Shown here in pieces: positions 5,455-34,681 of a DNA stretch of 36,920 nucleotides. Location of the stretch: the NCBI GenBank assembly GCA_016932135.1, contig JAFGDJ010000069.1:1-36920 (forward strand), given 5' to 3'. Below the pieces are notes generated by a model. It made no database searches and was not told where the DNA came from. It was given only the letters and a program-made list of their open reading frames with translations. The DNA comes from Spirochaetales bacterium (GTDB lineage: Bacteria; Spirochaetota; Spirochaetia; JAFGDJ01). The position numbers and the translations under genes are program-made. Numbering within the stretch: position 1 is the first letter of the stretch; every line of letters starts with the position of its first letter.

Positions 5455-5481
5455 TTGACAGGGGGCCCGGGGCGTAATAAA
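5455..5481 (+). promoter_or_regulatory. candidate sigma70-like promoter for the GntR-SPFH unit
   Basis: TTGACA lies at 5455-5460 and TAATAA at 5475-5480, with a 14-15 nt spacer that is suboptimal. A dyad-symmetric element (TGTATG-N12-CATACA, 5485-5508, including GTACTAATAC) lies between the -10 and the start codon and resembles a GntR-family operator (GT-Nx-AC). Confidence 0.35.
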
Positions 5482-5520
5482 CTTTGTATGTACTAATACT
5501 CTCATACATTGGGGTTGCCC

Positions 5521-5973
5521 ATGGACATGGAAAAAGAAAAAACCCTGGCCTTTACCCTGGACCCTAAAAGCGGGGTTCCGTACTACAAGCAGATTATTCT
5601 GCAGATCGAAATGGCCATCTCCGACGGCAGGCTGGTAAGCGGTGACCAGCTGCCCACCGTCCGGGGCCTGGCGGTGGATCTGCGGATCAACCCTAACACC
5701 GTCGCCAGAGCGTACAACGAGCTGGAGATCCGCGGTGTGGTGAATACGCAGCAGGGTACGGGAACCTTCATCAGCGACAAGACCATCAGCATGACCGAGG
5801 TGGAAAGGGAACGGATCCTCGCCGGTTTAGCCAGGGAGTTTATAGCCAAGGCTCAGTCTTACGGGTTCTCAAAGGATGACGTGTTGTCTTTCCTCGTGGA
5901 GGAGGATCCGGTGAAAAGGAATAACCAGGAGGTGTCGGATGGAGATAAAAAAAGCACAGTTTTCACGCATTAA
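5521..5973 (+). CDS. GntR-family transcriptional regulator (short YtrA-like type)
   Basis: It has an N-terminal winged-HTH with a GntR signature (PYYKQIILQIEMAISDGRLVSGDQLPTVRGLAVDLRINPNTVARAYNELEIRGVVNTQQGTGTFI) and a short C-terminal domain typical of the YtrA subfamily. The start is uncertain: the track uses TTG at 5509, and ATG candidates lie at 5521 and 5527. Confidence 0.85.
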   Translation: MDMEKEKTLAFTLDPKSGVPYYKQIILQIEMAISDGRLVSGDQLPTVRGLAVDLRINPNTVARAYNELEIRGVVNTQQGTGTFISDKTISMTEVERERILAGLAREFIAKAQSYGFSKDDVLSFLVEEDPVKRNNQEVSDGDKKSTVFTH

Positions 5974-7054
5974 GAATATCCAGATTGAACGCATGGAGAA
6001 AGACTTCACCTTCAACGCCTTTTCCTTTCTTATCCTCGGCATTATCGTCACTTCAGGGGTGCTCTGCCAGTTCATGTTTTCTACGGACCCCGATAAGAAT
6101 CTGATTCTGTATGTCTGTGTCGGCATCCTCCTCGGCGGAGGCTTGCTGACGGTGGTACCGAAATGGATTTCCGTTCTTCAGCTGATCGCCCTGGGGTGGA
6201 TCGCCATGTTTGCCTGGCTGGGCGGCATGTACTGGATCCTCCTGGTTTCCGTTACCCTGGGGCTTTTTATTGCCCCTTCCTGCGAATTGATCTATCAGTG
6301 GGACAAGGTAGTAGTGCTTCGATTGGGTAAATTCAAGAAAGTTCACGGTCCAGGCTTGTTTTTTCTGCTCCCCCTGGTAGACCGGATAGCCGCCTTTGTG
6401 GACACCAGGATTCGGGTCACCGATTTCAGCGCGGAAAAAACCATTACCCGGGATACTGTACCGGTCCATGTGGACGCCCTGGCCTTCTGGATGATCTGGA
6501 ACGCCAAGCAGGCGGTGCTGGAGGTGGAAAACTTCATGGAAGCCGTGACCCTCTCGGCCCAGACCGCTTTGAGGGATTCCATCGGGAAACACGATCTGGC
6601 GGAGCTTCTGTCGGAACGGGATAAACTCTGCGCCGAGATTCAAACGGCCCTGGACGCCAAGACCAATCCCTGGGGCATCTCCATTCTGTCGATAGAGTTC
6701 ACCGACATCATTATCCCCCAGGGGTTGGAAGACGCCATGAGCAAACGAGCCCAGGCCGAGCGGGAAAAACAATCCCGGGTTATCCTGGGAACAGCGGAGG
6801 TGGAAATTGCGGAAAAATTCGCCGAGGCTTCCAAGCAGTACATCGACAACCCCACGGCCCTGCACCTCCGGGCGATGAATATGGTCTATGAGGGAATCCG
6901 GCAGCGGGGCTCCATGGTGCTTCTGCCCTCTTCCGCCCTGGACAGTATGAATCTTGGAACCACCCTGGGAGCCCTGGCCCTGGAAAAAACGAATTCCCCT
7001 GAGAAGAAAGAGCCCGAAGCCGACACTTCTCCTGAAAAGGAACCGGATATTTAG
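5939..7054 (+). CDS. SPFH/band-7 (stomatin/prohibitin-like) membrane protein
   Basis: Four N-terminal TM helices are followed by an SPFH core (VVVLRLGKF...VDALAFW...ILSIEFTDIIIP) and a coiled-coil. A perfect SD (AGGAGG, 6-nt spacer) sits before ATG 5939. The gene overlaps the GntR gene by 35 bp. Confidence 0.85.
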   Translation: MEIKKAQFSRIKNIQIERMEKDFTFNAFSFLILGIIVTSGVLCQFMFSTDPDKNLILYVCVGILLGGGLLTVVPKWISVLQLIALGWIAMFAWLGGMYWILLVSVTLGLFIAPSCELIYQWDKVVVLRLGKFKKVHGPGLFFLLPLVDRIAAFVDTRIRVTDFSAEKTITRDTVPVHVDALAFWMIWNAKQAVLEVENFMEAVTLSAQTALRDSIGKHDLAELLSERDKLCAEIQTALDAKTNPWGISILSIEFTDIIIPQGLEDAMSKRAQAEREKQSRVILGTAEVEIAEKFAEASKQYIDNPTALHLRAMNMVYEGIRQRGSMVLLPSSALDSMNLGTTLGALALEKTNSPEKKEPEADTSPEKEPDI

Positions 7055-7138
7055 AGGCTCCGACAGGGTTTTCCTCCGCCGGGGCTTCTTGCAAAAACGA
7101 AGGTTTCCTGCCATGATGAGGCGCGGAGTTGTAATCCT

Positions 7139-8209
7139 ATGAAAACAGAACCTGTAATCATCCTTTACGGTGGCAGAACCGGAGAACACGAAGTATCCCT
7201 GGCGTCCGCCACGGCGGTATTGAAGAACCTGGATCTAAACCGCTGGAACCCCCGGGGCATCGGTATCGATCACGACGGCACCTGGTATCTGCAGAAAGAC
7301 GAGGACCTCTTTCCGAGGAAGGGGAACCTCTCGGTACGGCGGGACCCTCAAGCGGTGGTTTCCATATTACCTGGCCGGGGTATGACGGTGCAGGAAAAAG
7401 TCCTGGAATGCGCCTGCGTTTTTCCGGTTCTTCACGGCACCTACGGAGAAGACGGAACCGTGCAGGGACTCCTGGAAATCGCCGGACTGCCCTATGCCGG
7501 TTCGGATGTGCTGGGCAGTGCCCTGGGGATGGACAAGGAAATGACCAAACGATTATGGCTCCAGGCCGGTCTGCCGGTGGTCCCCTACCTGGCTTTCCAG
7601 AAGGATGACTACTCGCAGGAAAAAGCGGAAAAAGCCTTCGGATTTCCGGTCTTCGTCAAGCCGGTGCGTATGGGATCGTCGGTGGGGGTAAACCGGGCGG
7701 ATTCACCGGAAGAACTCCGGAAAGCCGTGGAAGAAGCCTTCCGTTACGATACGCGGATTCTCCTGGAGCCCGCCATCGACGGCCGGGAGATCGAATGTTC
7801 CGTGGTGGGGAATCGGCAGCCGGTTACCTACGGTCCCGGGGAAATTATCCCGTCCCACAGCTTTTACAGCTACGAAGCGAAATATATCGATCCCGACGGA
7901 GCGGCGTTGATGATACCGGCGGATCTGAGCGAGGAAGACCGCCGGCGGGTGCGAGACCTGGCAATGCGGGCTTTTACGACTCTCGGCGCTTCGGGGATGT
8001 CCCGAGTGGATTTTTTTTATGAAAGGAAGACCGGTAAGATCCTCTTAAACGAGATTAACACCATTCCGGGTTTTACCGGTATCAGCATGTTCCCCCTGAT
8101 GTGCGTTCACCACGGGTTATCCTTCCAGGACCTGGTGACCGAACTGATTGACCTGGGAATCCGGCGGTTTCATGAGCGGCAGCACCTTACGTTCGCCTAC
8201 AGCACATAG
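7139..8209 (+). CDS. ddl: D-alanine--D-alanine ligase
   Basis: It is ATP-grasp throughout and carries hallmark Ddl blocks (ILYGGRTGEHEVSL, VLHGTYGEDGTVQGLLEIAGLPYAGS, EINTIPGFT). Confidence 0.95.
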   Translation: MKTEPVIILYGGRTGEHEVSLASATAVLKNLDLNRWNPRGIGIDHDGTWYLQKDEDLFPRKGNLSVRRDPQAVVSILPGRGMTVQEKVLECACVFPVLHGTYGEDGTVQGLLEIAGLPYAGSDVLGSALGMDKEMTKRLWLQAGLPVVPYLAFQKDDYSQEKAEKAFGFPVFVKPVRMGSSVGVNRADSPEELRKAVEEAFRYDTRILLEPAIDGREIECSVVGNRQPVTYGPGEIIPSHSFYSYEAKYIDPDGAALMIPADLSEEDRRRVRDLAMRAFTTLGASGMSRVDFFYERKTGKILLNEINTIPGFTGISMFPLMCVHHGLSFQDLVTELIDLGIRRFHERQHLTFAYST

Positions 8210-19846: not shown

Positions 19847-19848
19847 CC

Positions 19849-19879
19849 CCCCCCTGACTTCCCGGCCGTTGGGGGGCTT
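19849..19879. terminator. C7/G6 hairpin between convergent CocE and the ferritin-like gene
   Basis: CCCCCCC...GGGGGG is followed on the + strand by a T-rich CTTAATTCTCTTTC. The loop is long (~18 nt), so this is a weak candidate. Confidence 0.25.
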
Positions 19880-20333
19880 AATTCTCTTTCAGTATATGCT
19901 CATCGTAGAGAGATTCGAACCTCAGCTTGTGGCCTGCCTCTTCGGAGGCAATGCGCAGAAGAAGCTTCTCCGTGTCGGTTCCGGAAACCCGGGAAGCCAG
20001 ATTCGTATACAGCCGAAAGGAAGCCTCTTCCCGTTTCATAGCCAGAATCAGGATATCCTGGTAATCCATTTCAGCCTCCGGCTTTTCCGGTGTAACCAGG
20101 TACTCACTGATTTTCAGGTCCGTCACCTTTTTCGGCTCCAGGTCCCGGAGTTCCTTTTTCTCCAGACCTTCCAGCACGGTAATATGGCCCATCTCCATGG
20201 CTTCCAGTTCAAAGAGCATAGTCTTCATACTTTTGAAGCCGGCTTTTTCTTGTAATCCCCGGTAAAAGGCTGCCGCCTCTTTTTCCCGCTCAATGGCAAA
20301 GGACAGAATCTCCCGGACTGTGCTATCAGCCAT
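19878..20333 (-). CDS. ferritin-like/rubrerythrin-family diiron four-helix-bundle protein (no rubredoxin domain)
   Basis: It has two E-x-x-H metal-binding motifs (ELEAMEMGH, SEEAGH) about 90 aa apart in a 151-aa helical protein. It sits 29 bp downstream of the large Fe-S flavoprotein and is the last gene of the same-strand block. Confidence 0.7.
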   Translation of the reverse strand: MADSTVREILSFAIEREKEAAAFYRGLQEKAGFKSMKTMLFELEAMEMGHITVLEGLEKKELRDLEPKKVTDLKISEYLVTPEKPEAEMDYQDILILAMKREEASFRLYTNLASRVSGTDTEKLLLRIASEEAGHKLRFESLYDEHILKEN

Positions 20334-20362
20334 ATTGTTCCTTCCTCCCTTTTTTCACCCTT

Positions 20363-23300
20363 TTATAGGAGAAGCGCATTCCGGATCTCCTCCCTGTCCT
20401 GCGCCCCCTGACGCAGGGGAGAACGGCCGGAAGGCTCACTGTATCCCTCGATCCAATACTTCAGGGGAACCGGAATATGAAGATCCACATGGGTGTTGTC
20501 CCCGCCCCATCGGATCACTCTTCGGTTATCGTTGCTTTCAAGATTCCCCCCGACATCAAGAATCAGGTCAAAGTCTTCCATGCCACCGCTATTACCAATT
20601 TCTTCCGGGGATTCTCTTTCTCCCAGGGATTTCAAGAGGTACCAGGAATTCCGGGCGTTCCAGAAAAGAGTCACTCTGATTTTTTGCCAGGTACTGGCTT
20701 CCCCGATGGATTGAATGAGCCGGTTTTCCGTGTCCCGCTCACAGCAGACATGGAGATCCTCCGGATTGATCAAGATGTCCACCATCCGCCGTTCAAACTG
20801 GGCGTACTGCAGAGCATCGTCCAGGGATGATAGGTTCGGGAAGACCCGATCCGCCGTACGCTGAACTGCCGGGCCGTTATCTCCTACAACCCAGAGGGTG
20901 AAATAACCGGCTTTTTTCATCCGGTAGGCTTCGGTGAAGGCAACGTTATTCGAATCGTAGAGGGTTCCCAGAACCAAGGCTGCCCGGCGTTGCGGATCGA
21001 TGCCTGTATCTTCGAAGAAATAGTGGGTCTCCAGATTAAATGGTCTTCGCCCGTTCTTTGTCGACAAACTACTTTCCGGTAAGCCGCCCTTTCCGAGATT
21101 GTTTAACTCTATCCAACTGGGATTGATGTGCTCAAGGCCGATGGGCCTGACCACACAACCAAGTTCCCCCGCTCGAGCAAGAAAATAATCAATAACCTCC
21201 CCGCTCAAGAAAGGAGATATCCGCATAAGGACCTTTTTTGACTCTTTCATATAGGAATCCATCAGTCCGGAGGCTTTCTTCCTCTCCAGGTTTCCATCAG
21301 GGGTCGAGCAAATTCCCTTCCCATTGGATTGATTCTGCAAAATGAAAGTGTTCTGGAACCTGCCTCGTTCACAAAGAATACCGCCGTAGGTATCGAAACG
21401 TTCGGTAATCCGGGTAAAAAGACTTCCGTGAGAACGGTATTCCACCGGGCAGCTGACGGAGCACATAGGGCAGTAACCGGGAGTAACCTCCTCTTCCAAG
21501 GGCACTGTTTTTCCGGAAGGAAATTTTTCCGTCAGGGCACCCACGGGACAGGCGGAGACGCATTGACCGCAGCTTATACAAAGATCCACTTCACCGAAGG
21601 GGCTGCCAAAAGACGGTTCGATATGGGAAGCGAATCCCCGTTTCACATAGCCCAGGACCCCCAGCCCCTGGACCTCCTGACAGATCCGGACGCAACGACC
21701 GCAAAGGATGCACTTGGAGGGATCGCGGACAATATACGGATGGCTCTTATCCACCGGGTGAACTTGAAAGTCACCCACAAAACGATCAATCCGGGCTTCG
21801 TATTCCTGGGCATACTCTTTGAGTTTACATTCATGCACATCCTGACAGCCGCACTCCAGGCAGCGACGGGCTTCGATCAGAGCCTGTTCGTCGGTATACC
21901 CCATTTCGATTTCCGAAAATGACCGCCTCCGGCGCTCTAAGGGAATCTTCGGCATTGTTTGTCGGGGGAGTTTCTCTTCATCCTCCAGATCTTCCGCCGT
22001 TACCGGCCGCAGATCCGATTTTCTCACCAGGAATTCGGCCTTCCGCTCAACCTGCAGACCGGCAAAGAACATTCCGATAGACGCCGCTGCGTGTTTTCCG
22101 CCGGCGATAGCCCGAATGGCAATGTCCGGACCGGTAACCACATCTCCCGCGGCAAAAAGCTTGGGGATCGCCGTCGCTCCGGTTTCCTTGTCACAGACGA
22201 TGTTGCCCCGTTCATCCACCAGGCCTTCCGCTGTTTTTAAGGAACTCGTGTCGGTATACTGCCCGACGGCGGCGATAACCGTGTCCACCTCCCAGGAAAA
22301 ATCAGCTCCTTCCACCGGTACAGGACGCCGCCTGCCTGAAGGATCTGGTTCCCCCAGTTCCATGGTGATCAAATGCAGTTCCAGAGGATTGTTTCTCCCC
22401 TTGGTGATTTTCGAAGGAGCCGCCAGATAGGTTATACGGATTCCTTCCTCCAGGGCTTCTTCAATCTCCATATCGGAGGCAGGCATTTCCTCCCTGCTCC
22501 GTCGATAGAAAATCTGCACATCATCGGCTCCCAGTCGCAAGGAAGTTCTGGCGGCATCAATAGCGGTATTCCCCCCGCCAATAACGGCGACCTTTCGGCC
22601 GATCTTCGGATGGTTTCCCTCCGCCACACCCCGTAGCATGTCGATACCCGGCAGGACACCCGGCAGATCCTCCCCGGCGATCCGCATCTCCCGGCTTTGC
22701 CAGGCTCCCAGGGCGAGAAGAACAGCATCGTTTTCTTTTAGCAAGGTTTCAAGTTCCAGCTCCGTCCCCAGACACTTACCGCAGATTAAAGAAACACCGA
22801 GATCGGTAATAAGGGCAATTTCTTTATCCAGAACATCCTGAGGCAGCCTATAATCCGGTATACCGTACCTGAGCATACCGCCGGCTTTCTCCTGGGCTTC
22901 ATAGACCGTAACCTCCGTCCCCGCTTGTTTTAAATAGTACGCCGCCGATAAGCCGGCCGGTCCGCCGCCGATGACAGCTACCTTCTTGCCGTTCGAAGGA
23001 GCGACTTCCGGCTTCCAGGGATTGCCGGAGAACAAGTCAATGTCGGCGATATACCGCTTGAGATAATCGATCCCCACCGGTTCATCTACTATATTCCGCC
23101 GGCATTCATCCTCACAGGGACGGGGGCAAACCCGACCGCAGACCGATGGAAAGGGGTTGTTCTTTTTCACCAGCTTCAGGGCTTCGGCGTTTTTACCATA
23201 GGCAATCAGCCCCACATAACCCTGCACGTCGATATTGGATGGACAAGCCAGGGTGCAGGGAGCCTTACAGTCGCCGTAATGGTTGGAGAGGATCAGTTCA

Positions 23301-23584
23301 AAAGCCAGCTTCCTGGCCTGGCGGACCTCTTCATCATCCGTTACAATCTTCATCCCCGGTCTTACCTGGGTAGCGCAGGAGGGGACGAATCCCTTAGCTC
23401 CTTCCACCTTTACCAGACAGACCCAACAGGACCCATAGGGTTCCAGGCGACGGTCATCACAAAGAGTCGGTATATGGAGGCCCTGTTCCCGGGCTGCCTG
23501 GAGGATAGTCACTCCCTCGAAAACCGCACATTCTTTCCCGTTGATATGTACCTGAATTAATTTTCTCCCGCCGTTGGTCATCAT
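20363..23584 (-). CDS. mosaic Fe-S flavoprotein: a 2Fe-2S ferredoxin N-domain, an NfnB/GltD-like NAD(P)H-FAD module, a 2x[4Fe-4S] ferredoxin domain and a degenerate molybdopterin-oxidoreductase-like C-domain (StnC-like large subunit)
   Basis: aa 1-85 form a plant-type 2Fe-2S domain (CDDRRLEPYGSCWVCLV...SCAT). aa ~100-165 hold GltD/NfnB N-terminal clusters (GDCKAPCTLACP; FPSVCGRVCPRPCEDEC). Two Rossmann motifs (KKVAVIGGGPAGLSAAYYL; RKVAVIGGGNTAIDAART) and AAGDVVTGP indicate FAD and NAD(P)H binding. A CLECGC/HEC segment precedes two CxxCxxCxxxCP ferredoxin motifs. A MopB-type motif (CPMCSVSCP...GGILCERGRF) follows, and after it about 400 aa with no catalytic hydrogenase or Mo signatures. Its start ATG overlaps the upstream gene's stop (ATGATGA). 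Confidence 0.85.
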   Translation of the reverse strand: MMTNGGRKLIQVHINGKECAVFEGVTILQAAREQGLHIPTLCDDRRLEPYGSCWVCLVKVEGAKGFVPSCATQVRPGMKIVTDDEEVRQARKLAFELILSNHYGDCKAPCTLACPSNIDVQGYVGLIAYGKNAEALKLVKKNNPFPSVCGRVCPRPCEDECRRNIVDEPVGIDYLKRYIADIDLFSGNPWKPEVAPSNGKKVAVIGGGPAGLSAAYYLKQAGTEVTVYEAQEKAGGMLRYGIPDYRLPQDVLDKEIALITDLGVSLICGKCLGTELELETLLKENDAVLLALGAWQSREMRIAGEDLPGVLPGIDMLRGVAEGNHPKIGRKVAVIGGGNTAIDAARTSLRLGADDVQIFYRRSREEMPASDMEIEEALEEGIRITYLAAPSKITKGRNNPLELHLITMELGEPDPSGRRRPVPVEGADFSWEVDTVIAAVGQYTDTSSLKTAEGLVDERGNIVCDKETGATAIPKLFAAGDVVTGPDIAIRAIAGGKHAAASIGMFFAGLQVERKAEFLVRKSDLRPVTAEDLEDEEKLPRQTMPKIPLERRRRSFSEIEMGYTDEQALIEARRCLECGCQDVHECKLKEYAQEYEARIDRFVGDFQVHPVDKSHPYIVRDPSKCILCGRCVRICQEVQGLGVLGYVKRGFASHIEPSFGSPFGEVDLCISCGQCVSACPVGALTEKFPSGKTVPLEEEVTPGYCPMCSVSCPVEYRSHGSLFTRITERFDTYGGILCERGRFQNTFILQNQSNGKGICSTPDGNLERKKASGLMDSYMKESKKVLMRISPFLSGEVIDYFLARAGELGCVVRPIGLEHINPSWIELNNLGKGGLPESSLSTKNGRRPFNLETHYFFEDTGIDPQRRAALVLGTLYDSNNVAFTEAYRMKKAGYFTLWVVGDNGPAVQRTADRVFPNLSSLDDALQYAQFERRMVDILINPEDLHVCCERDTENRLIQSIGEASTWQKIRVTLFWNARNSWYLLKSLGERESPEEIGNSGGMEDFDLILDVGGNLESNDNRRVIRWGGDNTHVDLHIPVPLKYWIEGYSEPSGRSPLRQGAQDREEIRNALLL

Positions 23585-25356
23585 GCCGGCACCCCCGTAG
23601 CGATTTTTACCGCATGGAACCGGCAGCCTTCATAACAAAGACCACACTGAATACAGAGATCCTGATCTATGGAGTGTGGTTTTTTCGCATCACCGCTGGC
23701 CGCGTGGGTGGGACAGAACCTCGCGCAAATGGTGCAGCCTCGGCACTCGTTCGGATCGATGACATAACGCACCAGGGCCTTACACTGCATAGCCGGACAT
23801 TCATGCCGTTCAATGTGGGCGAGGTATTCATCCCGGAAGTACTTCAATGTTGTCAGTACCGGGTTTGGAGCGGTCTGTCCCAAACCGCAGAGGGAAGAAA
23901 CCTTTACCCGCCGGGCCAGGTCTTCCAATTCATCCAGATCTTCCAGCTTTCCCTTCCCTTGGGTAATCCGCTGGAGGATTTCCATCATTCTTTTTGTGCC
24001 GATTCTGCAAAAGGTGCATTTGCCGCAGGATTCGCTCTGAATAAAGCTGAGGAAATAGCGGGCTACATCCACCATGCAGGTGGTTTCATCCATGACCACC
24101 ATTCCCCCGGAACCCATAATAGCTCCCGTGGCATTGATGGATTCATAGTCCACCGGTGTATCCAGCAATTCCTCGGGGATACAGCCTCCGGAGGGACCTC
24201 CCAACTGGACGGCTTTAAACTGTTTGTCTTCCTGGATTCCGCCTCCGATGTCAAAGATAATTTCCCGCAAGGTCATACCCATGGGAACCTCCACCATGCC
24301 ACCGTACTTGATCTTCCCGGCCAGGGAAAAAACCTTGGTACCTTTGCTCTTTTCTGTTCCGATAGAGGCAAATTTTTTCGCTCCCATGTTTAAAATCCTG
24401 GGGACATTGGCCAGGGTTTCCACATTGTTGATGTTTGTGGGATATCCCCAGAGACCTTTCTCCGCTGGATAAGGGGGACGGAGGCGCGGCATCCCTCTTT
24501 TTCCCTCGATGGAGGCCATCATGGCGGTTTCCTCACCGCACACAAAGGCACCGGCCCCCTCTTTTATATGGATAAAAAAGGAAAAGCCAGTTCCAAGGAT
24601 CCGATTGCCCAGGAAATTGCGTTCTTCCGCCTGGCTGAGGGCCTTATTGAGGCGCTTGATGGCTAAAGGATACTCAGCCCGAACATAGATATACCCTTCC
24701 CCCGCGCCTATGGCGTAGGCTGCAATGATCATTCCTTCAATAACCGAATGGGGGTCCCCCTCCAGTACCGATCGGTCCATAAACGCCCCGGGGTCACCTT
24801 CGTCGGCGTTACACACCATATACTTTCTTTTAGAAGAAGAAGCCGCGATAAAGCTCCATTTCATGCCGGTCGGGAAACCCGCTCCCCCCCGGCCTCGCAG
24901 TCCGGAGGTTTTAATCTCTTCCACCACCTGCGCGGGAGTCATGGACTGAAGCACTCTTTTTAAGGCTTCGTATCCTCCCGTGTCGAGATACTCCACGATG
25001 GATTCCGGATCGATAATTCCTGAATTAGACAGAACAACCTTTCTTTGCCTGGAAAGATAGGGATAATCTTCAGGAAAGGCGTTTTCCTGATTAAAAACCT
25101 TCTCATTACATTCACTGGCAATGAAATCGGTAATTTTCTTTTCACTTACTTCACCGAAGAGTTTTTTCTGCCCATTGTCATATCGAACTTCTATAATCGG
25201 TTCTTTATGACAGGCACCAATACATCCGGTTTCACCAACCTTGATATCCATTTTTCCCTGAGCAATGGCAGCGAGGAGAGAATCGTATACTCCTTTCGCT
25301 CCGGCGGCAATCCCGCAGGATCCCATACCTACAACAATTTCGGTAACCCTACTCAT
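23581..25356 (-). CDS. NuoF/HydB/HndC-like NADH-binding FMN Fe-S flavoprotein (bifurcating-complex beta subunit type)
   Basis: An extra N-terminal thioredoxin-like 2Fe-2S domain is followed by the NuoF core (GLRGRGGAGFPTGMKW; FMN site GAGAFVCGEETAMMASIEG; ESCGKCTFCRIG). A C-terminal 2x[4Fe-4S] ferredoxin (CRGCTICARFCP, CIQCGLCYEGC) follows. This extended architecture is typical of HydB/HndC/StnB. Confidence 0.9.
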   Translation of the reverse strand: MSRVTEIVVGMGSCGIAAGAKGVYDSLLAAIAQGKMDIKVGETGCIGACHKEPIIEVRYDNGQKKLFGEVSEKKITDFIASECNEKVFNQENAFPEDYPYLSRQRKVVLSNSGIIDPESIVEYLDTGGYEALKRVLQSMTPAQVVEEIKTSGLRGRGGAGFPTGMKWSFIAASSSKRKYMVCNADEGDPGAFMDRSVLEGDPHSVIEGMIIAAYAIGAGEGYIYVRAEYPLAIKRLNKALSQAEERNFLGNRILGTGFSFFIHIKEGAGAFVCGEETAMMASIEGKRGMPRLRPPYPAEKGLWGYPTNINNVETLANVPRILNMGAKKFASIGTEKSKGTKVFSLAGKIKYGGMVEVPMGMTLREIIFDIGGGIQEDKQFKAVQLGGPSGGCIPEELLDTPVDYESINATGAIMGSGGMVVMDETTCMVDVARYFLSFIQSESCGKCTFCRIGTKRMMEILQRITQGKGKLEDLDELEDLARRVKVSSLCGLGQTAPNPVLTTLKYFRDEYLAHIERHECPAMQCKALVRYVIDPNECRGCTICARFCPTHAASGDAKKPHSIDQDLCIQCGLCYEGCRFHAVKIATGVPA

Positions 25357-25804
25357 CCCGTTTCTTCCTTATGGTTTTCAGCAGTTTCGACCAATTGAGT
25401 CTCCCTTGTACTTCGTTGTCGATCATCACAACGGGAGCCAGAGAGCAGCAGCCAAGACAGGAAACGCTCTCCACAGTAAAGATTCCGTCCTCCGTGGTTT
25501 GCCCTGGTTCAATACCCAATTCTGTTTTTAAGGCTACGTCAATGGCCGCCGCACCATTCACATGGCAGGCCGTGCCATGACATACCTTGATAGTGTACCT
25601 TCCTTGCGGTTGGAATCTGAACTGGGTATAGAAGGTAGCGACTCCGTAGATCTCCGCAGGAGAGGAACCGGTAGCCCGGGCGATCTCTTCCATGGCTTCT
25701 ATCGGAAGGTAGCCATAAATATCCTGCGTCGCCTGGAAAAGGGGAATAATATTACCCTTCCTCTCCCGCCATTCCTTCAGAAGTTTATTGAATCGTTTAT
25801 CCAT
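25349..25804 (-). CDS. NuoE/HydC/HndA-like thioredoxin-fold [2Fe-2S] protein
   Basis: 151 aa with CHGTAC...CLGCC cluster ligands and the NuoE fold. There is an 8-bp overlap with the NuoF-like gene. Confidence 0.9.
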   Translation of the reverse strand: MDKRFNKLLKEWRERKGNIIPLFQATQDIYGYLPIEAMEEIARATGSSPAEIYGVATFYTQFRFQPQGRYTIKVCHGTACHVNGAAAIDVALKTELGIEPGQTTEDGIFTVESVSCLGCCSLAPVVMIDNEVQGRLNWSKLLKTIRKKRDE

Positions 25805-25971
25805 AGCGCATCCTTCTAGAGAAAAGGATAATGTTGGTCCAATGCGAAAAGCCTAGCTGCTCAACTGTTGCCAAATAAAAGAAGTAAGTTCTAACAATAA
25901 ACCGATATGGGGAATTATGGGAAGATGAAAAATACTTACAGAAGCGTTTTTTTTAAAGATGACCAAAAAAA

Positions 25972-26337
25972 TTACATTGATCTGGTCGCTACCAGATTAA
26001 CTCCCGTTCCACCGATATTCGCCAGCAACACCTGCCCGGTTTCCACCGGCAAGGGGATCTTCATGGAGTAGAGGGTGTCAAGAAGGCTATCAATATGTTC
26101 CTTTGGAAGGGGTGCGTCGGTTTTCACCGACACACGACGTACCTCCGTCCCCATTGGAGAGCCTGCCGTCATGCATGTGGCCGTAACAACCCGCTTAGGT
26201 GCGAGCACTTCTTCCCTTCCATAGATCTCGCCCCGGGGGCATTGATTGCCTTCAATAGTGATATCCGTTTCATCAGTCCAGGAAGCTTGCAGCCGGCAAC
26301 CGATGGGGCAGGATATACAAATCAACTGGCGTTCCAA
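25972..26337 (-). CDS. DUF1667-family Cys-rich small protein (zinc-ribbon/Fe-S-like partner of GlpA-like dehydrogenases)
   Basis: It has LICISCPIGCRL...GNQCPRGEIY and the conserved VTTTV-like block (VVTATCMTAG). I propose a TTG start at 26335-26337, preceded by GGAAAGGAGAG with a 5-nt spacer, giving a canonical ~121-aa protein. The track ORF (to 26457) would overlap the upstream gene by 100 bp. Confidence 0.75.
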   Translation of the reverse strand: MERQLICISCPIGCRLQASWTDETDITIEGNQCPRGEIYGREEVLAPKRVVTATCMTAGSPMGTEVRRVSVKTDAPLPKEHIDSLLDTLYSMKIPLPVETGQVLLANIGGTGVNLVATRSM

Positions 26338-26356
26338 AGCTTCTCTCCTTTCCTGG

Positions 26357-27613
26357 TTACAGGATACCCGTTTCAAGGGTATTCCCCCTTGAGGATTCAA
26401 GAGATGGGATTTCTTCCCTATCCAAGGTAAAACTGACCATTTCAGAAGGTTGTACATGCCGAAGTTTCTTCCGTATAACCTCCCGGCCTTCGATTTTTAC
26501 CACCAGTTCGGCACCATTTTTAACAACTAAGGGCCGAAGGTAAAACCTGTTGTCGCCATCGGGGTTATACATATTAGGTAGGACATACTTCACATTGGCT
26601 CCGGAGACCGTTCTGTATTGACGGCCCGGGGCTACTCCTTTGAGATAATGACAGACTGCTTCTCCACAACGCTGAGATTCCTCAGTAACGAAATCCACCA
26701 GGTCATGCACATGAAGCACATTTCCACAGGCGAAAATCCCTTCCACCGATGTCATAAGACGAGAATCTACCAGAGCCCCACCGGTTTCAGGATTAAGATC
26801 AACACCGGCTTTTTTTGAGATTTCATTGTCCGGGACCAGGCCTACGGAAAGAAGCAGGGTGTCGCAGTCCAGATCAAAGGAAGCTCTGTTCCCACCTTCC
26901 TCCGTCCCCACCGGAGATACCCGGACTCCCTCTACCCGTTCTTTTCCCCAAATTTTCGAGACTACATGGGAAAGATGCAGAGGAATATTGAAATCCGTGA
27001 GACATTGCACGATATTTCGGGTCAGCCCGGCTGGATAGGGTTGAATTTCCACTACTCCAAGTACCTCCGTCCCCACCCAGGTCATGCGGCGGGCCATAAT
27101 GAGACCAATATCTCCGGAACCGACGATGACTATCTTTTTGCCGGGGATATAACCGTCAATATTAACCAGCCTTTGGGCCAGACCGGCGGTAAAGATCCCC
27201 GAAGGCCTGGTGCCGGGGGTACCGATATTCCCGCGATTCCGCTCCCGGCAGCCCATGGCCAGCACAATGGAACGACAGGAAAAATGGAGCAGCCCATAGA
27301 CGGATGAGTACCCGTAAAAGCTCTTCATCGATCCTGTATCTTCTATATCCATTACCGTCGTCTCAAGATAGACATCCAGGCCTTTATCCTTCACCGCTTG
27401 AATAAACCGTTCGGCATATTCAGGCCCCGTCAATTCCTCCTTAAAGTGGTGGAGCCCGAACCCGTTGTGGATGCATTGATTGAGGATGCCACCCAAGGCT
27501 GTCTCGCGTTCCACTATAGCGCAGGAATAACCCGCTTCGGCGATTCTGCACGCGGCGGCCATACCAGCCGATCCTCCGCCGATAATGACGGAGTCATATT
27601 TTTTCTCCGTCAT
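26357..27613 (-). CDS. NAD(P)/FAD-dependent oxidoreductase (pyridine nucleotide-disulfide oxidoreductase family; HcnB/OoxA-like middle subunit)
   Basis: There are two dinucleotide-binding motifs (SVIIGGGSAGMAAACRIAE; KIVIVGSGDIGLIMARRM) and a C-terminal part with ACGNVLHVHDLVD. The gene overlaps the glpA-like gene by 4 bp. Confidence 0.85.
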   Translation of the reverse strand: MTEKKYDSVIIGGGSAGMAAACRIAEAGYSCAIVERETALGGILNQCIHNGFGLHHFKEELTGPEYAERFIQAVKDKGLDVYLETTVMDIEDTGSMKSFYGYSSVYGLLHFSCRSIVLAMGCRERNRGNIGTPGTRPSGIFTAGLAQRLVNIDGYIPGKKIVIVGSGDIGLIMARRMTWVGTEVLGVVEIQPYPAGLTRNIVQCLTDFNIPLHLSHVVSKIWGKERVEGVRVSPVGTEEGGNRASFDLDCDTLLLSVGLVPDNEISKKAGVDLNPETGGALVDSRLMTSVEGIFACGNVLHVHDLVDFVTEESQRCGEAVCHYLKGVAPGRQYRTVSGANVKYVLPNMYNPDGDNRFYLRPLVVKNGAELVVKIEGREVIRKKLRHVQPSEMVSFTLDREEIPSLESSRGNTLETGIL

Positions 27614-29082
27614 TCCTTTCCTCCGGTTCTCGAGAAAATTTGAAATTCTCCAACCCGGCCGGTAATTTCCCAGGACCCGGCACCTCGCTTTGTTATTTCA
27701 TCCACGGAAAGACCGGTCTCCCTCTGAATTATTTTTAGTATTTTATAGGTACAAAACCCACCCTGGCAGCGACCCATCTGGGCACGGGTATAAAATTTGA
27801 TACCATCTAAGGTTGTATGGCCTTTTTTTATGGCTTCTACTATTTCAGCCTCTGAAATTGATTCACAGCGGCAAACAATATTTCCATAAGACGGATTTTT
27901 TTCTATCAGTTTTTCCGCTGTAAAGGGATCAACTTCCCTAATTCTGGGAAGCGGATCGATAGCGGGGTCGTAATTCGGCTTTTCTTCAAGAATCAATCCT
28001 GCTTTTTTCAGGAGATCCTTTACATATTCGCCAATGGCCGGAGCAGCAGTGAGCCCCGGAGATTGGATGCCCGCCGCCTGAACAAGTTTGGGGCACTTCG
28101 TCGATATGGCGATATAAAAATCATTGCCTTCAAGGGCGGGTCTCAGCCCCACAAAAGCCGTAATAATATCCCGCTCTGAAACCGAAGGCACCAATCGTCT
28201 GGCGGAATAGAAAACCTTTTCAAAGTTATCCCCCGTGGTTGCCAGATCCTCCTTATCCTCAATTTCCTCTGCCGTAGGGCCGACCATCGTTGTTCCTTCC
28301 ACTGTCGGAATAACCAACATTCCCTTGGAGTTTGGACTGGGAACAGGAAAGATCACTCGGCTCGTAAAAGCCGCGGCATTCCGATCCATCAGGTATTCCT
28401 CTCCTTTTCTCGGGGAAATGGTAAACTCCTCCGCCTTAAAAAGTTTCGATATCTCATCAGCCCGGAGCCCGGCGGCATTCACCGCATATCTACTGGTAAC
28501 AGTTTCACCATTAACGGAAGAAATATGGAATCTTTCTCCCGTTATATCTACTCCATTAACCTTAAACTTGGTTTTCAGTTCTACGCCATTCTTTACAGCA
28601 GACTCGACTAAGGAAAAAACAAGACGGTAGGGTTCGACTATACCTCCGGAGGGTGCATGGAGCCCACCAACCACATCCCGGTTGAGTTTAGGCTCTAAAG
28701 AAAGCATCCTTTCCCGGTTACAGAGTTCGATACCGATGCTTCCGTTCTGCACACCCTGCATATAGAGCTTTTCTACAGTTTTCATTTCCTCGAAGGAAAG
28801 AGCTGCCACGAGAATACCGCATCGACGAAAGGGGAAATGCAGGTCCCTCTGCAGGGCATCGAACATTATATTCCCCTGGATTTCCAAGCGAGACTTCAAC
28901 GTGGATGCACCATGATGAAAACCACCGTGAATAATCCCGGAATTGGCTTTGGATACTCCGAAGGAGACGTCACATTCTTTCTCTAAAAGAACAACCCGCA
29001 GCTTGTATGCGGAAAGGCGCCTCGCAATAGAAGCCCCGGTGACTCCCGCACCGATTATGGCGACATCATAAACACTACTCAT
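27610..29082 (-). CDS. glpA: FAD-dependent glycerol-3-phosphate dehydrogenase-like oxidoreductase (GlpA/GlpO family) with C-terminal BFD-like [2Fe-2S] domain
   Basis: It has a DAO-type N-terminus (DVAIIGAGVTGASIARRL...GIIHGGFHH) and GlpA/GlpO-like central blocks. A C-terminal BFD-like Cys motif is present (CRCESISEAEI...GRCQGGFC). Glycerol kinase lies nearby on the same strand. An SD (GGAGGTG) precedes ATG 29082. Confidence 0.8.
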   Translation of the reverse strand: MSSVYDVAIIGAGVTGASIARRLSAYKLRVVLLEKECDVSFGVSKANSGIIHGGFHHGASTLKSRLEIQGNIMFDALQRDLHFPFRRCGILVAALSFEEMKTVEKLYMQGVQNGSIGIELCNRERMLSLEPKLNRDVVGGLHAPSGGIVEPYRLVFSLVESAVKNGVELKTKFKVNGVDITGERFHISSVNGETVTSRYAVNAAGLRADEISKLFKAEEFTISPRKGEEYLMDRNAAAFTSRVIFPVPSPNSKGMLVIPTVEGTTMVGPTAEEIEDKEDLATTGDNFEKVFYSARRLVPSVSERDIITAFVGLRPALEGNDFYIAISTKCPKLVQAAGIQSPGLTAAPAIGEYVKDLLKKAGLILEEKPNYDPAIDPLPRIREVDPFTAEKLIEKNPSYGNIVCRCESISEAEIVEAIKKGHTTLDGIKFYTRAQMGRCQGGFCTYKILKIIQRETGLSVDEITKRGAGSWEITGRVGEFQIFSRTGGKE

Positions 29083-29328
29083 GTTATAAGAGCACCTCCG
29101 TCCCCAAAGAATGCTTTCTCAGCAAAGGCATCTTTAAAAGAGTAAAACGATTTTATCCGGATATTATGGGTAAGGCAAGCCTACTACATAAAATGATTCA
29201 GACTAAAAGTTAAGAAAGTATTTTAAAGATTAAACAATGGTCCAATTTATCATGGAGCTAATTCTATAGAGAAAGAGACTTACATCACTTCTTCAGTCAG
29301 GAAAAAGAAAAAGTCGTTAAAATCATAA

Positions 29329-29841
29329 TTACTGATTAACATCTAATAAAAAAAGACCATATTGTGAAATCTGATCAGGTGGTTCTAAAAGCTCATATAC
29401 ATTTTCCTGGATAAATCTTATTCCATTATATGTATATTCGAAACAATATTGTACTAAACCAGCTCGAACGGGATTTAGGGCGATATATAAGAAAGTATTA
29501 AGTAACTGATAATAACCTTCAGTAATCGTACTTCTGAACCGATCATACCACACATGCCCATGAATCTCATATATTTTATTAAATTGAATTGCAAAAACAC
29601 TAAGTATCCATTGCATTATTTTAGAAAGGCTTTCCTTTTTACCCGGTCTAATCATGAGATGGACATGGTTACTCATGATGCAAAAATTTCTAATTTTAAA
29701 ATCATACTTTTTTTTCGCTCTTTGAAGCACGTGAAGGAAAAGCTCCTTCACGTGATCCGACTCTAAGATAAACTCCTGCCTATTAGCTCGCGCAGTAACG
29801 TGATACTCTGCGCCTGGCATTGTTCGTCTCGGGTATCTCAT
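29329..29841 (-). CDS. REP-associated tyrosine transposase-like protein (RAYT, IS200/IS605 Y1 HuH family, COG1943)
   Basis: Signature blocks are present: MPGAEYHVTARANRQEFIL (PGxxYHVTxRxN), an HuH motif SNHVHLMI, GHVWYDRF, and YIALNPVRAGLV, which matches the TnpA_REP C-terminus. I preferred the ATG at 29841 (MRYPRR) to 29973, which would overlap the divergent MMPL start. The local GC is low. Confidence 0.8.
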   Translation of the reverse strand: MRYPRRTMPGAEYHVTARANRQEFILESDHVKELFLHVLQRAKKKYDFKIRNFCIMSNHVHLMIRPGKKESLSKIMQWILSVFAIQFNKIYEIHGHVWYDRFRSTITEGYYQLLNTFLYIALNPVRAGLVQYCFEYTYNGIRFIQENVYELLEPPDQISQYGLFLLDVNQ

Positions 29842-29954
29842 ACTGGATATATACGTTGTTATAAGGCTGTTTGCTTCAAAAATAATAAATTTCGATATGT
29901 AATCCTCCGTCCCCCTAATAGACAGCTTCTTTACTTTTCTGTTACAAAAGAAAT

Positions 29955-32291
29955 ATGGCCATGGATAAAGCAAGACATTCTATTTTTCAATTTTCTTCAA
30001 ATCATCCAAAGCTTATTATTATAATCACCTTGCTACTAACGGTCTTTTTCGCCTTTTTTGCCCTTCGTATTAATATTAATGCTGATTATGCCAGCCTCCT
30101 GCCGGAAGACACCCTGGTAAATCAGCAAATAAAAGAGTTCAGTGGCGATAAACCTGAATCGGAACTCTTTGTCCTGGCAATAAAAGGGGAAAACCTCTTT
30201 ACAAAAACGATTCTATCTAGTTTAAACGATACTATTAATACCTTGGGGGACCTCCCGGAAGTTCAATCTGTCATTTCACCCTTCAATTTCGTCATCTTTG
30301 AACGATCCCCCAGCGGGAGGCTGATCATTGGGAAAACTTTTAATAAATCAGATTCTTTGGGGACGGAGGAAGGAGTTACAGCCTTTACTTCCAGATTGTT
30401 TGACTCCTCCTTCGCCGAGAACCTGGTAGTCTCTAAAGATCGTAAAATGCTCAATGCCTTCTTTTTCCTGGAACGCAGTGATGAGTATGGTGCCTTCCTT
30501 TCGGAGGTGAATAAAGTATCTAAAAACCTTTCCGAGATCGGAGTTTCCGTTCATACCAGCGGTCTGGTTGTTTTGAACGAAAGAACCCGCTTTTATATCA
30601 CCCGGGATGTCTCGATTCTAATCATTCTGGCAATAATGATTGTCATCGCGTTCTACTTTCTTACTTTTCGTACCGGTAAAGCGGTATTCATGCCAATTTT
30701 CGTAGTACTCTTCGGTACCGTTTGGTCCATAGGGTTTATGAGCCTCATGAACTACTCTTTAACCCTCATCAGCATTGTTGCTCCGCCTTTAATTCTTATC
30801 TTTGGGAATGAATACGCTATCTACGTCATGAGTGAATATTACCGCCTTGTAGGACATCATAACGAACACTCTGCTTTCATGGGGACGGAGGTTATACCTA
30901 CCACTACAAAAAACGTCACCAAACCTATCATTCTCGCCTTTATTACCACAGTCATTGGGTTTTTAAGCCTCTATGTCACGGACATAAAACAAACCCAGGA
31001 GTTTGCCCTGGTTGCCAGTTTCGGTTCTCTATCCTGCGGGGTTATCTCTCTCTTCTTTCTGCCGGCTCTTCTGTCATTGGCACCCCTTGGCGAGAAAAAA
31101 GATGCGTCTCTAAGGGGATACAATCCTGTAATTAAAAGGCTATCCGCTTTAGCATCAAACCACCCTCGCGCTGTTCTGCTTGTTATGCCTGTTTTTATTC
31201 TAGCCTTTGCCTTTTCCCTCCAATTCCTTCAGTTCAATACCGATTCAATCAATTATTTTCCTAAGAAGGATCCGGCCATTAAGGACATGTATGTGCTGAC
31301 CGAAGCAATTGGAGGGTTCGATGAAATAAACGTTACCTTTCTTGCCCCCGAAGGTACTAAAGGGTACTTCAACGACCCAATATTATTAGAAAAGCTTTTA
31401 AAACTCGAGAAGGATCTGAAAGCTCATCCGGATGTGTGCTATGCCCTGTCTTTCCCCTCCTATCTTGAAGAGATCCATAGGGTTATGGGGAGTCCTCCGG
31501 ATACTCAGTTCTCCCGGGGTCTTGTCCTTCTGCTTACACGGCTGCTTAAAGCAGCCGCAGCCGATGAAAGCATGGGCGGGGCTCTGGATATCCTCTTTAA
31601 CGAAGATTTTACCCGTCTTACCCTGAACATGAGGATTTATAATAGTACAACCGGTCACTTTATAGACGAATATCGATTCAGGGAGTTTCTCTCCTTTCTG
31701 AAAGACACCTTAAAGGAACATGGTTTTCAAGAGGATGATGCCGTTATCTGGGGAGAGATCATGCGCAATCTTCATCTGGCGGACTCCCTCCGGGGTTATC
31801 TGCTGATATCGATGGTGATATCCCTCGGGTTAATCCTTATTATTACTTCCGTCACGTTTCGTTCAGTTCTCTACGGCCTGTACGCGGTCCTCCCTTTAGC
31901 CCTGGGTCTAATGCTCAATTTTGTCCTGATGGCCCTCTTCAAGATACCCCTGGATATGACTACCATTATGGTCTCGAATGTTACCATCGGTGTGGGTATA
32001 GATAACGCGTTTTACCTGGTGGTGCAGTACCGCAGATCACTGCAAAACAACCATAAATCCTTCTCTGTTTTGATTCATGAAACCCTGGAGGTCATTCTGC
32101 GGCCCACGGTACTGTCGACTCTTTCCATTGCCCTGGGATTGATGGTTTTTCTCCTGGCGGCTTTCAAACCTATTGTTTATTTCGGTATGCTGGTCATTTT
32201 TTCTCTCACCGCCACGGCGGCCTGTACATTAATTGTGCTTCCGGCGATATTGTATTTCGACTCAATAAAAAGAAAGGTTACGCCTAAATAA
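29955..32291 (+). CDS. MMPL/RND-superfamily exporter (COG1033-like, two 6-TM bundles each with a large extracytoplasmic loop)
   Basis: 778 aa. A TM helix and ~170-aa loop are followed by 5 TM; a second TM and loop are followed by 5 more TM. It has an SSD-like arrangement (GIDNAFYLVVQY). The gene has low GC. Confidence 0.8.
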   Translation: MAMDKARHSIFQFSSNHPKLIIIITLLLTVFFAFFALRININADYASLLPEDTLVNQQIKEFSGDKPESELFVLAIKGENLFTKTILSSLNDTINTLGDLPEVQSVISPFNFVIFERSPSGRLIIGKTFNKSDSLGTEEGVTAFTSRLFDSSFAENLVVSKDRKMLNAFFFLERSDEYGAFLSEVNKVSKNLSEIGVSVHTSGLVVLNERTRFYITRDVSILIILAIMIVIAFYFLTFRTGKAVFMPIFVVLFGTVWSIGFMSLMNYSLTLISIVAPPLILIFGNEYAIYVMSEYYRLVGHHNEHSAFMGTEVIPTTTKNVTKPIILAFITTVIGFLSLYVTDIKQTQEFALVASFGSLSCGVISLFFLPALLSLAPLGEKKDASLRGYNPVIKRLSALASNHPRAVLLVMPVFILAFAFSLQFLQFNTDSINYFPKKDPAIKDMYVLTEAIGGFDEINVTFLAPEGTKGYFNDPILLEKLLKLEKDLKAHPDVCYALSFPSYLEEIHRVMGSPPDTQFSRGLVLLLTRLLKAAAADESMGGALDILFNEDFTRLTLNMRIYNSTTGHFIDEYRFREFLSFLKDTLKEHGFQEDDAVIWGEIMRNLHLADSLRGYLLISMVISLGLILIITSVTFRSVLYGLYAVLPLALGLMLNFVLMALFKIPLDMTTIMVSNVTIGVGIDNAFYLVVQYRRSLQNNHKSFSVLIHETLEVILRPTVLSTLSIALGLMVFLLAAFKPIVYFGMLVIFSLTATAACTLIVLPAILYFDSIKRKVTPK

Positions 32292-33166: not shown

Positions 33167-34681
33167 CTACTCGGAAACCCACCCCATCGCCCGCTCTACC
33201 GCTTTATTCCAAAGGGACAGTTTCTCTTCCCGGATCTCCTTGCTCATGAAGGAAGTCCAGTGTTTATCCTCCTCCCAGTGGCGGGATAGTTCCTCCAGAT
33301 CTTTCCAGAAGCCCACGGTCAGCCCGGCGGCGTAAGCGGCTCCCAAAGCTGTGGTTTCGGTAACCTTGGGGCGGATTACCGGGATATCCAGGATATCCGC
33401 CTGGAACTGCATAAGAAGCTCGTTTACCACCATACCGCCGTCCACTTTCATTCCCCGGGAAACGATACCGGAGTCCTTTTCCATAGCCTGGACGATTTCC
33501 CGGGTTTGAAAGGCCGTGGCTTCCAGTACCGCCCGGGCGACGTGACCCGCCTTGGCGTAACCGGTAAGGCCGGTGATAACCCCCCGGGCGTCGCTTCGCC
33601 AATGGGGAGCGAAAAGACCTGAAAAAGCAGGGACGAAATAGACCCCCCCCGAATCTTCCACCGAAGAAGCCAGGGTTTCGATCTCCGACGACGACTGTAT
33701 AAGCCCCATATTGTCTCTCAGCCACTGTACCAACGATCCGGCTACGGCAATGGAGCCTTCCAGGGCGTAAACGACTTCCTCCGTCCCCCGGCGGTAGGCT
33801 ACCGTGGTCAGGAGCCCGTATTTGGAATGTACCAGGTCGGTCCCGGTATTCTGCAGTAAGAAGCATCCGGTACCGTAGGTGTTCTTGGATGATCCCGGTT
33901 CAAAACAGGCTTGTCCGAAGAGAGCGGCCTGCTGATCCCCCAGGATACCCGCCACCGGCACCTCCGTCCCCAAGGGACCGGCTTTATCGGTGTATCCGTA
34001 GGGTTCGGTGGGGACGGAGGATAGTATTTCCGGCAGAATCTGCCGGGGAACACGGAATACTTCCAGAAGTTCATCGTCCCAGGCGAGGGTTTTCAGGTCC
34101 ATCAACATGGTCCGGGAAGCGTTGGTCACATCGATGCCGTGCACACCCCCCTTCGGACCTCCGGTAAGGTTCCACAGGAGCCATGAGTCGATGGTACCAA
34201 AGAGGACATCGCCTTTTTCAGCGGATCTACGTAATCCTTCCACGTTATCCAGGAGCCAGGCGATCTTGGAGGCGGAAAAGTAGGTGGCCAGGGGCAACCC
34301 GGTCTTATCGCGGAAACGGTTCGCCCCTCCGTCGGCCGTCAGGCGGTTGATCATCTCCGTTGTCCGGGTATCCTGCCAGACCAGAGCCCGGGCGCAGGGT
34401 TTGCCGGTACGGCGGTCCCAGAGGACGGTGGTCTCCCGCTGGTTTGTTATTCCCAAGGCGGCCAGTTGTCCGGCCGATATCCCCGACTTCTGCAGGGTCT
34501 CCCGGATTACCCGGGAGGTGTTGTTTATAATCTCTTCCGGGTCATGCTCGACCCAGCCTGGCTTGGGGTAATACTGCTTATGTTCCACTTGAGTCCAGGA
34601 TGCAGGACTTCCGGTTTCATCGAAAAGAATAAATCTGGTGCTGGTAGTTCCCTGATCCAGGGCTCCGATATACTGTCGCAT
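33167..34681 (-). CDS. glpK: glycerol kinase
   Basis: FGGY-family hallmarks run along its full length ([15 protein letters not shown]; [11 protein letters not shown]; [19 protein letters not shown]). An SD (GGAGAAATACG) precedes ATG 34681. Confidence 0.95.

Follow-up and report, generated by a model that had tools for sequence, protein, structure and literature searches.

The 36,920-nucleotide contig JAFGDJ010000069.1 of a Spirochaetales bacterium, referred to here in its entirety as the window, carries on its minus strand a run of 7 co-directional open reading frames (ORFs) between positions 19878 and 29082, in which the genes of a glycerol-3-phosphate (G3P) dehydrogenase lie directly upstream of those of an enzyme from the electron-bifurcating Bfu family. 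The ORFs are present at exactly the coordinates given in a first-pass annotation made from the sequence alone, and a Pfam scan of the 7 proteins recovered every domain that it had named. That annotation raised 2 possibilities for this arrangement, either a coupling of G3P oxidation to the bifurcating module by confurcation, or 2 independent operons that happen to be adjacent. In the direction of transcription, the block consists of the following features:

27610–29082, minus strand: GlpTk-type G3P dehydrogenase dependent on flavin adenine dinucleotide (FAD), 490 amino acids, with a C-terminal BFD-like [2Fe-2S] domain; Pfam DAO 4e-65 and Fer2_BFD 2e-13
26357–27613, minus strand: NOX subunit, an FAD/NAD(P)-binding oxidoreductase of 418 amino acids; Pfam Pyr_redox_2 7e-31
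25972–26337, minus strand: DUF1667 (MOX) small cysteine-rich subunit, 121 amino acids from the TTG at 26337; Pfam DUF1667 3e-23
25805–25971, no strand: AT-rich spacer of 167 bp between the 2 modules, probable site of an Nfn-module promoter
25349–25804, minus strand: NfnC/StnA (BfuC), NuoE-like [2Fe-2S] subunit, 151 amino acids; Pfam 2Fe-2S_thioredx 8e-49
23581–25356, minus strand: NfnB/StnB (BfuB), extended NuoF-like flavin mononucleotide subunit, 591 amino acids; Pfam Complex1_51K, NADH_4Fe-4S, and 2 copies of Fer4
20363–23584, minus strand: NfnA/StnC (BfuA), NuoG-like scaffold, 1073 amino acids; Pfam Fer2_4, Fer4_20, Pyr_redox_2, and Fer4_Nqo3
19878–20333, minus strand: ferritin-like/rubrerythrin-like protein, 151 amino acids; Pfam Rubrerythrin 9e-12 and Ferritin_2

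Measurement of the junctions bears out their description as tight with a single AT-rich gap. The genes glpA and nox overlap by 4 bp and 19 nt separate nox from the DUF1667 gene, nuoE and nuoF overlap by 8 bp, nuoF and nfnA by 4 bp, and 29 nt precede the rubrerythrin-like gene. The spacer between the DUF1667 gene and nuoE has a GC content of 35.3%, compared with 52.1% for the window. GC content is also slightly lower across the trio than across the downstream module (26001–29000 versus 20001–25000), with glpA at 47.5% and nfnA at 54.0%, a difference that could be due to amino-acid composition instead of origin.

The first 3 genes are predicted, from domain architecture, gene order, and best matches, to encode a GlpTk–NOX–DUF1667 (MOX) G3P dehydrogenase complex. 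In the dehydrogenase, the DAO domain spans residues 6–357 and Fer2_BFD residues 402–453. Its best NCBIfam match is type 2 G3P oxidase (GlpO; 293 bits, under the model cut-off), among solved structures it is closest to the G3P oxidase GlpO 4x9m (1e-46), and it fails the GlpA equivalog TIGR03377 (157.2 bits versus a cut-off of 552.8), with PRK11101 scoring 107.8 bits versus a cut-off of 425. The trio had been described as a GlpA-like, anaerobic-type G3P dehydrogenase; the assignment to a G3P-dehydrogenase-type complex holds, and the implied identity with canonical GlpA gives way to a closer resemblance to GlpO and GlpTk. The catalytic subunit of Escherichia coli GlpABC likewise combines an FAD-dependent G3P dehydrogenase with a BFD-like [2Fe-2S] domain, but the partners in the window are NOX and DUF1667 instead of GlpB and GlpC, and there is no adjacent membrane or quinone-linked subunit. 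Homologs of the window dehydrogenase with 67% to 82% identity are widespread in Spirochaetes, where the JGI product name is glycerol-3-phosphate dehydrogenase. In the relatives examined nox always directly follows glpA, and NOX is 418 to 420 amino acids long in all of them, with or without an adjoining Nfn module.

A soluble GlpTk–NOX–MOX complex has been demonstrated in Thermococcus kodakarensis, and the cluster also occurs in Thermotoga and Clostridium and, fused into a single protein, in protists including Giardia (PMC11962113; bioRxiv 10.1101/2024.02.29.582781). The order of DAO-family G3P dehydrogenase, Pyr_redox_2 NOX, and DUF1667 MOX in the window is that of T. kodakarensis TK1393-1391, also seen in T. 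maritima and C. perfringens and in the Giardia fusion. The same trio has been reported beside glpK in Pseudoclostridium thermosuccinogenes (PMC7282089) and noted beside glpK in a Bipolaricaulota isolate. The trio is a self-contained and widely distributed unit, from which the window differs in having glpK 4 kb away instead of adjacent and an Nfn module as the downstream neighbor. The most likely start of the DUF1667 gene is the TTG at 26337, judging from the ribosome-binding site AGGAAAGGAGAG that precedes it and from the tblastn alignment of the longer ORF to relatives, which begins at residue 40; for the same reasons we set aside the ATG of the 161-amino acid ORF (25972–26457), which would overlap nox by about 100 bp.

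The nuoE-nuoF-nfnA genes downstream of the spacer are contiguous, in an order that is invariant across 10 related contexts, and are predicted to encode a complete member of the Type 1 Nfn-Bfu (NfnABC/StnABC) family, as that family is defined by Schut et al. (PMC9304861). Structures of NfnABC and StnABC from Caldicellulosiruptor saccharolyticus (9bov), Sporomusa ovata (8oh5), and an archaeon (9n5u), which have the same 3 subunits as the window, rank at the top for each subunit with E-values from 1e-48 to 1e-252, and HydABC, Fdh, and complex I structures rank below them in all 3 cases. The individual values are 2e-217 (9bov_A), 4e-210 (8oh5_C), and 1e-200 (9n5u_A) for NfnA, while NfnB matches 9bov_B at full length (residues 7–585 to 3–583; 9e-252, 840 bits) with its cysteine motifs conserved, and NfnC matches the NfnC chain 9n5u_C best (4e-51), followed by 9bov_C and 8oh5_A. 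The earlier assignment of this NuoE, NuoF, and large iron-sulfur flavoprotein set to the Stn/Nfn type is therefore well founded. Besides its C-terminal pair of Fer4 domains (residues 531–583, 2x[4Fe-4S]), NfnB has an N-terminal extension, and both features are common to the window and NfnABC/StnABC; this extended form of BfuB is reported to separate bifurcating from nonbifurcating NuoF homologs.

Within NfnA, Fer4_20 (residues 106–182) and Pyr_redox_2 (residues 200–496) are inserted between Fer2_4 and Fer4_Nqo3, and the NCBIfam model PRK12814 scores 717 bits over residues 10–639, so that the NfnL/GltD-like FAD–NADP(H) domain is intact. The domain order is that of NfnABC/StnABC, namely an N-terminal [2Fe-2S] domain, the NfnL/GltD-like FAD domain, His/Cys 4Fe-4S clusters, the Molybdop_Fe4S4 cluster, and a pterin-less Fdh-like remnant. 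This remnant is shorter in the window, where NfnA has 1073 amino acids as opposed to 1178 and 1172 in the bacterial structures and 963 in the archaeal one, and the alignment with solved NfnABC covers the first approximately 750 residues and ends at about residue 748. The C-terminal part contains a marginal Molybdop_Fe4S4 signature alone (23.2 bits), and the domain scan of NfnA returned no match to Fe_hyd_lg_C, Molybdopterin, or Molydop_binding, in agreement with the first-pass annotation, which had seen neither an H-cluster nor a molybdenum-bis(pyranopterin guanine dinucleotide) site in the large subunit. Caldicellulosiruptor NfnA is described as similarly having the Molybdop_Fe4S4 signature and no pterin-binding or H-cluster domain (PMC11829005). 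The transhydrogenase activity of the window module is predicted from its membership in this family.

The distribution of the 2 modules was taken from protein-database matches and contig look-ups, since a genome-collection scan with NfnA returned a single locus, a close relative. Scanning metagenomes with a NOX alignment yielded 80 further loci (46% to 64% identity), which were compared with all window proteins by tblastn. The 2 modules occur together only in the window, in a Spirochaetales metagenome-assembled genome (MAG) designated L001, and in a JGI contig designated L005, with NfnA 75% identical. Because L005 also has the acyltransferase, MMPL, and PepX genes that flank the block in the window, these represent one lineage. 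Outside it, the co-occurrence in related genomes that was to be expected of a coupled system did not emerge from the neighborhood survey, in which none of 7 NfnA, 3 GlpA, or 80 NOX contexts combined G3P dehydrogenase and Bfu genes. The 7 NfnA contexts (69%, 58%, 56%, 56%, 52%, 51%, and 50% identity) keep nuoE-nuoF-nfnA together behind an intergenic spacer and unrelated upstream genes; the upstream neighbors in NfnA contexts other than the window include a xanthine-dehydrogenase-like set, divergent genes, and a SIS-domain gene. In the contexts of 3 GlpA relatives from the protein database (74%, 72%, and 68% identity), glpA-nox-DUF1667 is followed by cdaA, DUF4015, or DUF72, and no NuoE, NuoF, or NfnA gene lies beside the trio. 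The complete trio is present in 64 of the 80 metagenome NOX loci and glpK in 31, and the same gene order is seen in L007 to L011. By tblastn, a NuoE, NuoF, NfnA, or ferritin-like gene was found in none of the 80, among which at least 2.5 kb of sequence downstream of DUF1667 was available in 43 and at least 9 kb in 24. A complete Spirochaetaceae genome (CP070696.1) contains both modules, with glpK-glpA-nox-DUF1667 at 4.25 Mb, 1.77 Mb away from the Nfn genes at 2.48 Mb. The 2 modules are distributed independently, an outcome that the first-pass annotation had named as an argument against coupling, and they adjoin each other in one narrow lineage only. Linkage is not accompanied by any difference in length or domain content, as NfnC has 151 amino acids in either situation and NfnA 1071 to 1073 in linked contexts versus 1072 in an unlinked one (L002).

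Transcription signals were sought in the spacer and at the margins of the block, where the following features lie:

19847–19877, no strand: GC-rich hairpin between the convergent rubrerythrin-like and pepX genes, 81% GC, CCCCCC...GGGGGG (C6...G8), with a terminator-like match at 19858–19876
29083–29328, no strand: AT-rich region upstream of glpA, 32.9% GC, with a promoter-like site at 29178–29150 (TTGCCT-17-TAAAAT, 9 of 12 positions)
33167–34681, minus strand: glycerol kinase GlpK, NCBIfam GlpK 746 bits versus a cut-off of 498

The hairpin is likely to act as a bidirectional terminator that closes the block and ends the transcription unit. The motif scan of the window spacer found neither a terminator-like hairpin nor a promoter-like site of at least 9 of 12 positions, the RNA fold of the spacer together with the 3′ end of DUF1667 was not significant (z = −0.43), and an Rfam scan of the whole window returned no riboswitch or other RNA family. 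A canonical terminator at the 3′ end of DUF1667 was rejected because the sole stem lies inside the coding sequence, 11 nt away from the U-run. A sigma-54-like sequence, TGGCAACAGTTGAGCA (25850–25865, minus strand; GG-N10-GC, a by-eye match to 8 of the 12 specified positions), was dropped because neither L001 nor L005 conserves it. In these 2 relatives, the equivalent gap of about 100 bp contains a sigma-70-like site, TTGAGA-16-TATACT, matching at 10 of 12 positions, and no terminator-like hairpin between DUF1667 and nuoE either. In L002, the upstream enzyme is separated from nuoE by a hairpin with a 12-bp stem (a terminator) and a promoter-like site. Spacers upstream of nuoE from 6 loci were too diverged to align beyond the approximately 20 nt proximal to the ribosome-binding site, so no conserved promoter can be called. 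In view of the composition of the window spacer, similar to that of the AT-rich region upstream of glpA, and of the site shared by L001 and L005, we infer that a separate promoter for the Nfn module lies within the 167 bp.

From these comparisons it appears probable, and we hold this with some confidence, that the block consists of 2 functionally independent and already-described enzyme systems that have become neighbors in one Spirochaetales lineage. Their juxtaposition would have arisen by local rearrangement, and electrons would not pass directly from one complex to the other. The GlpTk–NOX–MOX complex would oxidize G3P, made by GlpK, to dihydroxyacetone phosphate, with the BFD-type [2Fe-2S] cluster relaying the electrons from FAD to the NOX flavoprotein. 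NfnABC would reversibly couple the oxidation of NADPH to the simultaneous reduction of NAD+ and ferredoxin, and the third-substrate site of NfnA, its NfnL/GltD-like FAD domain, would already be taken by NADP(H). Of the 2 possibilities in the first-pass annotation, that of independent adjacent operons is accordingly the better supported, by the separate distributions and the wide separation in CP070696.1. Several observations pull in the other direction. The arrangement is kept in all 3 MAGs (window, L001, and L005) at 75% to 90% protein identity, and it is still intact in L001 even though the genes upstream of glpA differ there, which indicates some persistence. The window's own spacer has no promoter-like site at the scan threshold, and with no terminator-like hairpin between DUF1667 and nuoE in any of the 3, read-through co-transcription is possible. 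Finally, it is conceivable that electrons from GlpTk–NOX–MOX enter the NAD(P)H and ferredoxin pools in anaerobes.

The next most probable reading, although we regard it as unlikely, is a lineage-specific operon of 7 genes transcribed from the glpA promoter, in which the link would be metabolic without being physical. Growth on glycerol would co-induce the transhydrogenase, which would rebalance the NADH, NADPH, and ferredoxin pools upset by reducing equivalents from G3P. The co-directionality of the 7 genes, the lack of a terminator-like hairpin in the 3 spacers, and the retention of the block in 3 diverged MAGs, including the one with a different upstream flank, all speak for this, as does the L002 Nfn module, which also lies directly behind a catabolic redox enzyme and hints that Nfn genes may be parked beside redox-demanding pathways. 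Against it stand the promoter-region-like composition of the spacer and the 10-of-12 site in L001 and L005, and in L002 itself the 12-bp-stem terminator separates the upstream enzyme from nuoE. No other sampled lineage shows the association, and glpK, the gene expected to be co-induced, lies outside the block in the window and is not in the L001 and L005 stretches.

Much less probable still is a physical supercomplex, in which the Bfu core would receive electrons both from G3P (about −190 mV) and from reduced ferredoxin and would reduce NAD(P)+ by confurcation. A donor near −190 mV together with reduced ferredoxin can reduce NAD+, which is the logic of Ldh–EtfAB, and on paper the scheme is thermodynamically feasible. 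Ldh–EtfAB shares only this thermodynamic logic with the proposed coupling; its enzyme family, EtfAB with a bifurcating FAD, is unrelated, and the block contains no Etf genes. Besides the adjacency and common direction of the genes, the supercomplex has in its favor that Bfu enzymes are known to have recruited many different third-substrate modules (PMC9304861) and that a branch of clusters in NfnA (A2-A4-A5), which has no assigned function in the Caldicellulosiruptor structure (PMC11829005), could in principle accept a partner. The third substrate enters Bfu enzymes through BfuA, however, and since that site is here a complete NADP(H) module in a complete NfnABC, the confurcation idea does not fit the anatomy of the enzyme. 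Domain content and lengths gave no sign, for BfuA or for the G3P dehydrogenase subunits, of an unoccupied entry point for a third substrate or of an extra docking domain, and no subunit has gained a domain or changed in length relative to relatives that lack the neighbor. The trio is self-contained in Thermococcus and a single protein in protists, the modules do not co-occur outside one lineage and lie 1.77 Mb apart in CP070696.1, and glycerol does not appear among the functions tied to Bfu gene clusters in the family survey (PMC9304861). The coupling by confurcation proposed in the first-pass annotation is not supported.

A looser variant, in which the trio and NfnABC, with or without the ferritin-like protein, are co-transcribed and exchange electrons in this lineage alone, possibly by docking at the A2-A4-A5 branch, would have G3P oxidation pulled by ferredoxin-assisted reduction of NAD(P)+ in an undescribed G3P-dependent Bfu reaction, and despite the absence of a terminator-like hairpin from the spacer, the persistence of the arrangement in 3 diverged MAGs, and the conceivable flow of GlpTk electrons into the NAD(P)H and ferredoxin pools, we judge it highly improbable.

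If true, a coupling between G3P and Bfu would extend the family's range of third substrates and would explain how anaerobes without quinones get rid of the relatively high-potential electrons that G3P yields. The comparison of loci favors, instead, 2 known systems made neighbors by an accident of genome arrangement, and the practical value of the locus is modest. Both modules are new members of known families; the specific coupling is unsupported here and, as had been supposed, undescribed in the literature that was searched, where queries for a G3P–Bfu link and for the context of T. maritima TM1432-1434 gave nothing relevant. In T. maritima, hydABC may lie a few genes away from the glycerol cluster, which plays no part in the conclusions here. 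What the independent-modules reading does provide is the placement of genuine transhydrogenases of the NfnABC/Stn type and G3P dehydrogenases of the GlpTk type in uncultured Spirochaetales, with nuoE-nuoF-nfnA as the conserved module.

A small lead for research on Bfu enzymes comes from the ferritin/rubrerythrin-like gene that recurs behind nfnA. Its product has 2 ExxH motifs in the translation and no rubredoxin domain, is of the di-iron four-helix-bundle type, and weakly matches 2fzf and the ferritin-like di-iron protein TM1526. A gene for a protein of 149 to 151 amino acids directly follows nfnA in the window, L005, L002, L003/L004, and JGI 3300072015 (NfnA identity 56% to 100%), with the following positions in 3 of the relatives:

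L002, 13230–13685: ferritin-like gene directly after nfnA
L003, 13192–13647: ferritin-like gene directly after nfnA
L005, 13245–13700: ferritin-like gene directly after nfnA

The gene is truncated in L001 and was not found behind nfnA in the examined neighborhoods of L006, L092, L094, and L095. The protein may act as a fourth partner of NfnABC in this clade, with a role in oxidative stress, and the parts of the NfnABC literature that were searched make no mention of such a gene. Rub-Bfu (Type 4), which is predicted in PMC9304861, also has a rubrerythrin-family gene directly downstream of the Bfu cluster; in that type BfuA is missing and rubrerythrin follows BfuB, whereas the window has a full-length NfnA with the ferritin-like gene behind it and so differs from Rub-Bfu.

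The presence of glpK nearby, as first annotated, is confirmed by its NCBIfam score; the gene lies 4.1 kb upstream of the trio, with transposase, MMPL, and acyltransferase genes in between. In L007, glpK is directly upstream of glpA, and it does not occur in the 20 to 23 kb examined of L001 and L005. This displacement in the window and absence from the L001 and L005 stretches indicate that this lineage has undergone rearrangement around the trio. The transposase gene (29329–29973), situated between the MMPL gene and glpA, is of the REP-associated tyrosine transposase (RAYT)/IS200-like type (NCBIfam 80.2 bits, at the cut-off). The gene is missing in L005, where 171 bp separate MMPL from glpA, and looks like a recent insertion beside the glpA promoter region.

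Two of the related loci contain further redox genes. In L002, the 69%-identical relative, a xanthine-dehydrogenase-family enzyme (2141–7443), preceded by a TRAP transporter, is encoded just upstream of nuoE. Its FAD subunit (797 amino acids) carries GltD/NfnL-like Fer4_20 and Pyr_redox_2 domains between FAD_binding_5 and CO_deh_flav_C, a predicted NAD(P)H-linked molybdenum-hydroxylase architecture that is unusual. In L008 (GlpA 74%), a classical NfnAB/NfnSL-like pair at 1934–4278, with NAD_binding_1 and DHODB_Fe-S_bind in the first protein and Fer4_20 and Pyr_redox_2 in the second, lies upstream of both glpK (at about 2.6 kb) and the trio (at 5.7 kb), a proximity that is probably coincidental because genes on the opposite strand intervene.

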